DNA of 64,000 nucleotides from Lentisphaeria bacterium (lineage in GTDB: Bacteria > Verrucomicrobiota > Lentisphaeria > Oligosphaerales > CAITYL01). A model generated the notes under the pieces. It saw only the letters and a list, made by a program, of their open reading frames with translations. It searched no databases and was not told where the DNA came from. Where the stretch lies: the NCBI GenBank assembly GCA_041651315.1, contig JBAZJM010000003.1, positions 1 through 64,000 on the forward strand. The letters run 5' to 3'. A program made the translations under genes and the position numbers. Positions 28,660-29,089 of the stretch are shown here, piece by piece (within the stretch, counting starts at the first letter, position 1; every line of letters starts with the position of its first letter).

Positions 28660-28734
28660 GTGCCCCTGGCAGGATTCGAACCCGCTGCCCAGCGTTTTTA
28701 GAGAACGCCTGCTCTACCGATGAGCTACAGAGGC
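28660..28734 (-). tRNA. tRNA with anticodon CUA (putative amber/TAG suppressor)
   Basis: Acceptor GCCTCTG/CAGGGGC, D GCTC-ATCGGTA-GAGC, T-arm GCGGG-TTCGAAT-CCTGC. The best anticodon fold is the perfect 5-bp stem GCGTT/AACGC with the canonical loop CTCTAAA (anticodon CTA). The alternative is a 9-nt loop. Confidence 0.5.
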
Positions 28735-28768
28735 AAAGAAGGTGTAGATTATGAAAATACACTTTCTT

Positions 28769-29089
28769 TCAAGAAAACGCTAATTTTAAGTTACTACAGA
28801 TTCTTCTTGCTTCCGGTTCTATGGCTATTGCAGTTAAACTTTCGCCAAGATCAGGTTCTCGAAATTCAGAAATTCGAAGACCATTGAATCTAGCTTTAAA
28901 CATGAGATCCTTAAGTTCATTCTCATTTCTTACCTGAAGAAGAGCAAGGTGATTTGAACAATCAAACCACCTATCAGCTACATCAGCATTTTCTTGGCAA
29001 AAATTGATCGCTGCATGAACCGCCTGAACTGCTTGATCACCAGGTGGAAGATCAGATCGAACCACCACATAAAGTTTAGGCGGTTTCAT
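28769..29089 (-). CDS. peptidyl-tRNA hydrolase PTH2-like protein
   Basis: 106 aa. KLYVVVRSDLPPGDQAVQAVHAAI and ...LLQVRNENELKDLMFKARFNGLRISEFREPDLGESLTAIAIEP follow the PTH2/DUF2000 pattern. Confidence 0.55.
   Translation of the reverse strand: MKPPKLYVVVRSDLPPGDQAVQAVHAAINFCQENADVADRWFDCSNHLALLQVRNENELKDLMFKARFNGLRISEFREPDLGESLTAIAIEPEARRICSNLKLAFS

Follow-up and report, generated by a model that had tools for sequence, protein, structure and literature searches.

A PTH2-like gene followed by a lone CUA tRNA

The window analysed here is a 64,000-nucleotide stretch of DNA filed under Lentisphaeria bacterium (assembly GCA_041651315.1, contig JBAZJM010000003.1, positions 1 to 64,000 of the forward strand). 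Our subject is a locus on its reverse strand, in which a gene for a protein resembling peptidyl-tRNA hydrolase 2 (PTH2) is followed on the same strand, 34 nt downstream, by an isolated tRNA gene with the stop anticodon CUA. We propose that large phages share a conserved two-gene translation module, composed of a PTH2-fold esterase and a stop-decoding tRNA, and that this locus is one copy of it; we give this reading a probability of about 0.55.

ARAGORN identified 26 tRNAs in the window, 25 of them in an array and one, at 28660-28734 (-), standing alone with its nearest neighbour more than 16 kb away. Its anticodon is reported as CTA, and the accompanying 'Pyl' is a conventional label only. The gene scored 52.4 bits against Rfam RF00005 (gathering score 29), matching model positions 1-71 as a full-length cloverleaf; in this alignment the anticodon loop is CUCUAAA, the stem is GCGUU/AACGC, and one extra G before the stem is placed as an insertion. 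The minimum free energy (MFE) fold is a cloverleaf of -28.4 kcal/mol with a 7-nt loop, and the centroid fold is the same. Both U33 and A37 are present in the loop (C32-U33-C34-U35-A36-A37-A38), the acceptor stem has 7 bp with one G.U pair, the D-loop carries G18G19, the T-loop reads GGTTCGAATCC, and the discriminator is A, with no CCA encoded in the gene. The extra nucleotide permits a sixth pair, G.U, on the anticodon stem, and a 6-bp anticodon stem was considered as a family feature and rejected on comparison of the partner tRNAs described below.

Comparison with closely related loci revealed covariation, with the G7-C66 pair replaced by A-U in loci L072 and L073. In L074 the anticodon stem GGCGTT/AACGCT is replaced by GTGCTT/AAGCAC and the T stem is also rebuilt, leaving the loop identical; a different CUA tRNA body thus occupies this site although the PTH2 protein is 97% identical to that of the window. 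The gene sequences mark the window tRNA as a canonical elongator-type tRNA under purifying selection. The architecture of tRNA-Pyl comprises a small D-loop lacking G18G19, a 3-nt variable loop, a single base between the acceptor and D stems and an atypical T-loop. We ruled out this identity, as the window tRNA has G18G19, a 5-nt variable loop, TA between the acceptor and D stems and a canonical T-loop. Its nearest bodies are those of Lys and Glu(CTC) tRNAs, which tie at 72%, and its amino-acid identity is not inferable from body similarity.

The adjacent open reading frame (ORF), at 28769-29089, matches the Pfam family PTH2 (PF01981, E=3.6e-11, 43.7 bits versus a gathering score of 23) and belongs to PHROG 1866. 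Its AlphaFold2 (AF2) model has a predicted local distance difference test (pLDDT) score of 97.6, and Foldseek aligned the model to archaeal Pth2 and human Bit1 structures (2zv3, 3erj and 1q7s) with a template modelling (TM) score of about 0.8. In canonical Pth2 the active site includes the Lys of the GKGK motif and the Asp of the RDAG motif, as defined by mutagenesis of the S. solfataricus enzyme. The window protein instead carries PPGDQAVQAVHA in place of GKGK..AAQ..HA and FREPDLG in place of RDAG.T. Residue-level alignment to solved Pth2 structures places Asp, Gln or Pro at the canonical Lys position and an invariant Glu, followed by an invariant Pro-Asp, at the canonical Asp position, with Q21 and H24 conserved. 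The protein resembles archaeal and eukaryotic Pth2 (2zv3, 3erj, 1xty and 1q7s) in its fold, in 25-32% sequence identity and in the Q..HA motif, but differs in the loss of the GKGK lysine, in the change of RDAG.T to an invariant R-E-P-D-L-G and in belonging to a phage-only subfamily, known here from sequence and model. Because the lysine is lost, the R-E-P-D-L-G motif is present and the NCBIfam Pth2 equivalog scores (31 and 29.7 bits) fall below their cut-offs of 82 and 126, this protein should not be called a Pth2 orthologue. The FREPDL motif was rejected as a marker, since it fails to separate tRNA-linked from unlinked PTH2 genes, and no Pfam domain was found in the extensions of about 100 aa that some family members carry.

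The first-pass annotation of this DNA, made from the letters without database searches, had described an isolated CUA tRNA outside the main array with the 7-nt loop C-U-C-U-A-A-A and the stem GCGTT/AACGC, next to a PTH2-like gene. ARAGORN, Rfam and the MFE fold agree on the anticodon, loop and stem, the covariance model assigns the stop anticodon CUA and no sense anticodon, and the distance to the array (at 179-12169) as well as the Pfam and structural matches of the neighbour bear out the remainder. Its statements about the sequence were all correct, but it missed PTH2 as the key element and, in relatives, as the read-through client.

The PTH2 subfamily is linked to stop-decoding tRNAs across phages

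A tblastn search with the PTH2 protein returned 231 phage records, 207 of them mycobacteriophages, and 60 IMG/VR loci were fetched by alignment of homologues (10 sequences), with ARAGORN run on all of these. Several records illustrate the same arrangement. A Myrna-like phage has an annotated peptidyl-tRNA hydrolase followed 0.2 kb later by a 'tRNA-Pyl(cta)'; in Bxz1, gp154 is followed by a 'tRNA-OTHER' for which ARAGORN gives the anticodon CTA; and Acinetobacter phage ME3 carries a CTA tRNA 450 nt upstream of PTH2. CTA tRNAs lie 0.8 and 2.1 kb downstream of PTH2 in huge phages of 462 kb and 735 kb, respectively, and LR745208 has a TTA tRNA 135 nt downstream.

Stop anticodons were found in 44 of the 130 tRNAs within 3 kb of PTH2 versus 3 of the 157 beyond, a 26-fold enrichment (Fisher p=4e-14; the PTH2 loci are phylogenetically non-independent, and this and the later p-value overstate significance). 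All 52 stop-tRNAs lie on the PTH2 strand, mostly 5-400 nt downstream of the PTH2 stop codon, and of the 42 loci with a same-strand tRNA downstream of PTH2, 35 have a stop-reader as the first such tRNA. After dereplication of the PTH2 loci at 80% identity into 50 clusters, a stop-tRNA within 3 kb was present in 35, or 36 with the inclusion of L036, where the tRNA overlaps the gene end; a distant PTH2 subfamily had none (0/5 clusters). In 17 fetched loci the stop-tRNA is the sole tRNA, often alone in 20 kb. In the window, too, a stop-tRNA lies on the PTH2 strand within 3 kb, and neighbourhood clustering revealed no other protein partner of PTH2 as constant as the tRNA. The adjacency of PTH2 and the stop-tRNA is not incidental.

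The partner anticodons are mostly CUA and sometimes UUA or UCA, and Rfam confirmed 11 of 11 sampled stop-tRNAs. The partners are elongator tRNAs of an ordinary type. A 7-nt anticodon loop is present in every partner tRNA, with U33 in 47 and A37 in 49 of 51, while bodies, discriminators and arm types are diverse and nearest-neighbour identities range from 0.7 to 0.8; the stop anticodon is the only feature that the partners share. The loci span 24-69% GC and include cultured standard-code phages, among the cultured ones being Bxz1, a Myrna-like phage and ME3. When the genomes of 185,579 species were searched for the PTH2 subfamily, only two hits were obtained, both on contigs of metagenome-assembled genomes and both accompanied by CUA tRNAs. 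The subfamily is phage-restricted.

The two loci with UCA-anticodon tRNAs also carry a gene for transfer-messenger RNA (tmRNA) within 2 kb of the module, at 7799-8141 in L059 and 10580-10855 in L060. The gene order is tmRNA, two tRNA(UCA) genes and PTH2 in L059, and PTH2, tRNA(CUA) and tmRNA in L060. This proximity fits a termination or rescue theme, if thinly.

Many PTH2 reading frames of relatives carry a stop codon matching the partner tRNA

Inspection of the PTH2 genes revealed 16 in which the stretch from the closest in-frame stop upstream to the first conserved strand contains no ATG, GTG or TTG. Each of these 16 has an ATG 0-3 codons upstream of that stop, such that the gene begins with a leader mini-ORF closed by the stop and continues in frame. 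The leader ATG is preceded by a Shine-Dalgarno sequence. The leader stop is TAG in 15 cases and TGA in one (L059), the locus whose partners are UCA tRNAs; it is never TAA. The same leader in L027-30 and in ME3 adds two further lineages, giving a total of at least 18, and two of three independently sampled family members likewise carry the leader of Shine-Dalgarno, ATG, one codon and TAG. A purine following a stop codon is a context that favours suppression. All of 20 leaders have a purine directly behind the stop, versus 9 of 16 terminator TAGs of the window (p=0.0014), and some of the codons that follow the leader stop (GTA, GTT, GTC, AAT, AAC and GGA) are unfit as restart codons.

Further stops lie within the conserved part of the gene. 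PTH2 of the 735-kb phage (L004) contains two in-frame TAGs, one of them the third codon of the gene, behind a perfect Shine-Dalgarno sequence and ATG, and the other at a conserved E/D/Q position, with two CUA tRNAs downstream; no general TAG recoding was found in the surrounding 60 kb. In L060 (IMGVR_UViG_3300045988_116629), a TGA occupies a conserved Trp position of PTH2, with a UCA tRNA 500 nt upstream of the gene. This locus carries both a UCA and a CUA tRNA as well as a 548-codon ORF at 13710-15356 with seven in-frame TGAs, and the phage appears to read TGA as Trp. In the complete ME3 genome the structural genes are intact and 20 of 239 long ORFs end in TAG; PTH2 is the sole ORF on the coding strand that has such a leader while lacking any ATG.

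Overall, about one third of lineages have a PTH2 frame whose translation requires read-through of a stop, either at codon 2-5 or further inside at a conserved site, and the stop to be read matches the anticodon of the partner tRNA. Because these frames depend on a stop that the partner would decode, the tRNAs appear to act as suppressors in vivo, with PTH2 output tied to them, and the reading frames of the relatives show that the two genes are coupled. The window PTH2 starts at an ATG of its own and is not preceded by a leader with an in-frame stop.

The same type of leader was also observed elsewhere. ATG, one codon and TAG precede a 399-codon ORF at position 8706 of L027-L030, 1.3 kb upstream of PTH2, and the Bxz1 gp153 ORF (L066, position 2611); both are candidates for additional UAG-gated genes. 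For ME3 gp266 (L069; NC_041884.1, 166601-166900), the start as called truncates the first conserved strand, and upstream of it the frame stays open as far as an ATG ACT TAG leader, while the called GTG start of Bxz1 gp154 immediately follows ATG TAG. The annotated starts of ME3 gp266 and Bxz1 gp154 are probably wrong.

UAG is a genuine terminator in this phage

The window uses the standard code. A survey of stop codons across 75 long ORFs counted 30 TGA, 29 TAA and 16 TAG (21%), and standard-code ORFs cover about 90% of the sequence. Treating TAG as sense merges 16 ORFs, compared to 52 for TGA and 28 for TAA as controls. Coding density was 0.87 under code 11 and 0.88 with TAG as sense, a blunt test that we used solely against gross recoding, as removal of any stop raises coverage. 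At orthologous gene ends in relatives with 85-99% identity, TAG of the window corresponds to TAA in four genes and TAA to TAG in one, and four genes have TAG in both; protein length is the same throughout. No TAG-interrupted gene was found in the window, two ORFs of which exceed 1400 aa (one of them weakly matching a tail protein), and none of the related loci combined a low code-11 density with rescue by TAG as sense. UAG is thus a genuine terminator in this phage, and the density, the few TAG merges and the TAG/TAA interchange argue against a stop-codon-recoded (code 15) identity.

These results agree with the first-pass annotation, which had argued against wholesale recoding and had noted that TAG terminates many ORFs, including dnaJ and the ORF at 2732-3076. 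It had also proposed selective read-through, and a fusion of dnaJ with the following ORF in particular. The ORF at 42101 does begin at an in-frame ATG adjoining the dnaJ TAG, as it described, but the fusion is not conserved and is thereby refuted on the criterion that the annotation itself had set. We obtained the dnaJ-junction contexts of relatives through a protein database, and there dnaJ ends in TAA (L080), in TAA TAA plus another in-frame stop (L079) or in TAG TAG ... TAG (L077); the downstream ORF has homologues that stand alone as proteins of 148-160 aa, and its conserved start is the ATG at window position 42128. No homologue of the downstream ORF was found in phage or viral collections. 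The only other TAG-terminated ORF in frame with its neighbour is 19422-19826, where nothing was found in support of a fusion. Among the 16 TAG-terminated window ORFs, 12 read-through extensions are at most 26 codons long, and 14 would run to a TAA or TGA as the following stop. No in-frame UAG needing sense decoding and no conserved read-through target was found in the window. Selective read-through does take place in relatives, with PTH2 itself as its target.

Genomic setting of the locus

The features of the locus and its surroundings are listed in Table 1. Because no terminator-like site was predicted in the 34-nt spacer by a promoter and terminator scan, PTH2 and the tRNA are likely co-transcribed. 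The gene upstream of PTH2, encoding a sigma factor of the extracytoplasmic function (ECF) type, is conserved in the closest relatives only (synteny in L072-L074) and is not a general part of the module.

Table 1. Coordinates of the module and of other features of the window
Feature	Position	Strand	Basis or remark
tRNA(CUA) gene	28660..28734	-	ARAGORN, Rfam RF00005, MFE and centroid folds
Spacer of 34 nt, from the PTH2 stop codon (TGA) to the tRNA 5' end	28735..28768	-	Sequence
PTH2-fold gene, 106 aa, phage-restricted subfamily	28769..29089	-	Pfam PF01981, PHROG 1866, AF2, Foldseek
ECF-type sigma factor gene, context only; its stop overlaps the PTH2 start (ATGA)	29086..29601	-	Pfam Sigma70_r2 and r4_2
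Second phage-encoded sigma factor, sigma-70 regions 2 and 4	20070-20993	-	
Vault-like protein, 886 aa, directly downstream of the tRNA	25933-28593	-	Major Vault Protein shoulder PF11978 (E=8e-30) and Vault_3 repeat
tRNA array, 25 genes	179-12169		ARAGORN
dnaJ, TAG-terminated	41000-42100		Complete by Pfam

A vault-protein homologue is unusual in a phage. The relatives of this protein in phage databases are found solely in the 735-kb and 462-kb huge phages, at 39-44% identity, and other window ORFs encode a family-A DNA polymerase, helicases and a weakly tail-like protein. On account of these vault-like relatives together with the polymerase, helicase and tail-like ORFs, we conclude that the window derives from a huge phage. 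A blastn search of the locus against phage records gave no match.

Several additional observations concern the window and its relatives. Inside the tRNA array, two extra Rfam tRNA-like matches at 5544-5612 (-) and 3659-3728 (-), scoring 33.2 and 30.5 bits, have no ARAGORN call, and several ARAGORN calls in the window fall short of the Rfam threshold. The L072 orthologues of the ORFs at 23393-23851 (-) and 21850-22341 (-) carry a eukaryote-type RNA-recognition motif (RRM_1) and a dual-specificity phosphatase (DSPc) domain. In a Joint Genome Institute (JGI) contig of 49.9 kb, the orthologue of the AAA ATPase at window 31739-33970 contains an intein with a LAGLIDADG domain. In relatives whose PTH2 is 97% identical to that of the window (L074, 1048-1611, and the same JGI contig), an additional ORF, of 184 aa in the JGI contig, lies between PTH2 and the tRNA.

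Discussion

The arrangement described here shares elements with several known systems. In prfB, which encodes release factor 2 (RF2), an early in-frame UGA autoregulates the gene, the stop being bypassed by a +1 frameshift. The PTH2 leader resembles it as an early in-frame stop in a termination-related gene whose output would be set by the efficiency of stop recognition; unlike the frameshift, the leader stop would be read by a co-encoded tRNA, and the window PTH2 has no such stop. The leader also recalls the lambda bar minigenes (PMC2490762, PMC10192219, PMC8012679), which are ORFs of 2-5 codons plus a stop tied to peptidyl-tRNA hydrolase biology; those are free-standing and toxic when Pth is limiting, whereas the leader mini-ORF continues in frame into the very gene for the hydrolase.

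Recoded Lak and crAss-like phages (Borges et al., bioRxiv 10.1101/2021.08.26.457843) likewise encode a stop-reading tRNA with anticodon CUA or UCA, and in L060 and partly in the 735-kb phage in-frame stops are truly decoded as sense, as in those phages; the phage of the window differs in its standard code, with TAG a working terminator. That study makes no mention of a hydrolase (bioRxiv 10.1101/2021.08.26.457843), and the hydrolase is also unmentioned in the huge-phage paper and in a 2026 jumbo-phage survey. XacN1 (PMC5852040) and Atu_ph07 (PMC6102473) are, like the phage discussed here, jumbo phages with many tRNAs and a CUA or UCA suppressor lacking an identified read-through target. Both have a suppressor tRNA and a peptidyl-tRNA hydrolase in the same genome, and their papers list the two separately and unconnected, whereas here the tRNA and the hydrolase form a tight conserved pair. 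In XacN1 the suppressors lie in the tRNA array of the terminal repeat and the hydrolase is ORF295, and the authors sought read-through targets and found none (PMC5852040). No literature linking PTH2 to suppressor tRNAs was found in a search that left subscription journals mostly outside its reach. The conserved pairing and the stop-codon leader are undescribed in the searchable literature; the components are known and the arrangement is new.

The best-supported reading of the locus is that the window tRNA is an active decoder of UAG alongside release factor 1 (RF1), with the PTH2-like esterase as its dedicated partner. Under this model, the gene for the phage-specific PTH2-fold esterase and the same-strand stop-decoding tRNA that follows it, here for UAG, would probably form one transcript. 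The tRNA would compete with RF1 at UAG at a modest level, and the enzyme would hydrolyse ester-linked tRNA arising from UAG decoding, in the form of peptidyl-tRNA or N-acyl-aminoacyl-tRNA and possibly that of the suppressor itself. Such hydrolysis may recycle or limit the suppressor, making it tolerable to a phage that ends a fifth of its genes in UAG. Candidate roles for PTH2 thus include recycling of read-through peptidyl-tRNA, deacylation or limitation of the suppressor and release of chains from it. Where a leader stop is present, it could serve as a sensor that scales PTH2 synthesis with read-through, and the window copy with its normal ATG start would be an ungated version of the module. 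The ultimate purpose of the suppressor might be backup decoding when RF1 is limiting, host manipulation or the control of a small UAG-gated regulon.

Several points weigh against this interpretation. The expression, aminoacylation and activity of the window tRNA are predictions from its gene sequence, and the esterase activity and substrate of the PTH2-like protein are assumptions, with the canonical Lys absent and the equivalog scores failing. The window PTH2 has no leader stop, and the gating is seen in relatives only; PTH2 of L072 and L074 also starts at its own ATG or GTG with no leader, and the UUA-linked PTH2 loci have ordinary starts. For the ME3 suppressor no client other than PTH2 is evident, which makes the loop look circular and its payoff unexplained. 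Finally, a stop-tRNA within 3 kb is missing from 14-15 of the 50 clusters, although three of them have one at 3.9-6.2 kb and several have short flanks, and the statistical case is tempered by the shared ancestry of the loci.

Other explanations were weighed against the same evidence. The pair might provide release-factor-independent termination, or a backup upon RF1 failure, in which the tRNA takes the nascent chain at UAG, PTH2 cleaves the peptidyl-tRNA(CUA) and the leader UAG senses RF1; proteins would be released at UAG, or ribosomes held up there rescued, whenever host RF1 is limiting or inhibited. This would account for a 'suppressor' kept by standard-code phages that end many genes in TAG, for partners that read any of the three stops and for the diverged PTH2 active site, and it draws further support from the tmRNA genes near the module in L059 and L060 and from the short read-through extensions of the window. 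We nevertheless consider it unlikely, as the mechanism is without precedent, the usual substrate of Pth-type enzymes is released peptidyl-tRNA, a charged suppressor would continue elongation after translocation, and there is no evidence of RF1 limitation during infection. A related proposal, that the stop-tRNA and PTH2 constitute a self-contained, ribonucleoprotein-style termination/rescue device in which the tRNA recognises the stop, the esterase releases the chain and the leader stop senses release-factor activity, seems to us quite unlikely; if true, large phages could finish proteins at UAG (or UGA or UAA) independently of the host class-I release factor. True partial recoding, with the tRNA serving late genes that contain in-frame TAG beyond the visible 64 kb, as in code-15 phages, and PTH2 merely co-located, we hold to be improbable. 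Phage suppressor tRNAs usually go with recoding, the genome is probably far larger than the window, in-frame TAGs occur in one or more genes of the related 735-kb phage and L060 is apparently TGA-recoded; yet no gene of the window, including the two ORFs of more than 1400 aa, is interrupted by TAG, TAG makes up a fifth of stops and interchanges with TAA, the related loci lack a recoding signature, ME3 uses the standard code throughout its complete genome and has intact structural genes, and both the PTH2 linkage and the leader would be left unexplained.

Little credence is given to a role in counter-defence, whereby the pair would neutralise host toxins that target translation and the tRNA would be a decoy or regulator, for example by occupying the A-site UAG cleaved by RelE-type toxins while PTH2 deacylates the N-acetyl-aminoacyl-tRNAs made by toxins of the Gcn5-related N-acetyltransferase (GNAT) type. 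Phage tRNAs are established in the literature as counter-measures to tRNA-targeting defences, Pth reverses the products of GNAT toxins, and the module is phage-restricted and spread across host phyla. On the other side, neither PADLOC nor anti-defence families gave a match, no tie emerged between the module and a particular defence system, and counter-defence alone explains neither the stop anticodon nor the matching stop in the PTH2 leader. That the adjacency is a by-product of the clustering of translation genes in tRNA-rich phages, with the CUA tRNA a neutral or decaying paralogue and the leader a mini-ORF for tRNA-independent termination and reinitiation, is highly improbable. PTH2 does lie inside tRNA arrays in some phages (Bxz1, L038), and many leader stops are followed by ATT, ATC, ATA or GTG, which are potential weak starts. 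However, several other post-stop codons are not start codons, internal in-frame stops occupy conserved sense positions and the stop type covaries with the anticodon in L059. The enrichment of stop anticodons near PTH2, the 17 loci with a lone stop-tRNA and the retention of the tRNA with compensatory changes, even swapped for another CUA body in L074, likewise argue against coincidence.

For genome annotation, these observations imply that many PTH2 starts are probably miscalled and that the labels 'tRNA-Pyl' and 'tRNA-OTHER' hide a coherent class of tRNAs. The suppressor tRNAs of standard-code phages, so far a loose end, gain a constant partner in the phage-only PTH2-like esterase, and in many lineages they gain a concrete client in the mRNA of that partner, with its mini-ORF of 2-5 codons closed by the very stop that the tRNA reads. 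Collectively, the pairing and the leader point to a level at which phages control the termination of translation and which has so far gone unrecognised.

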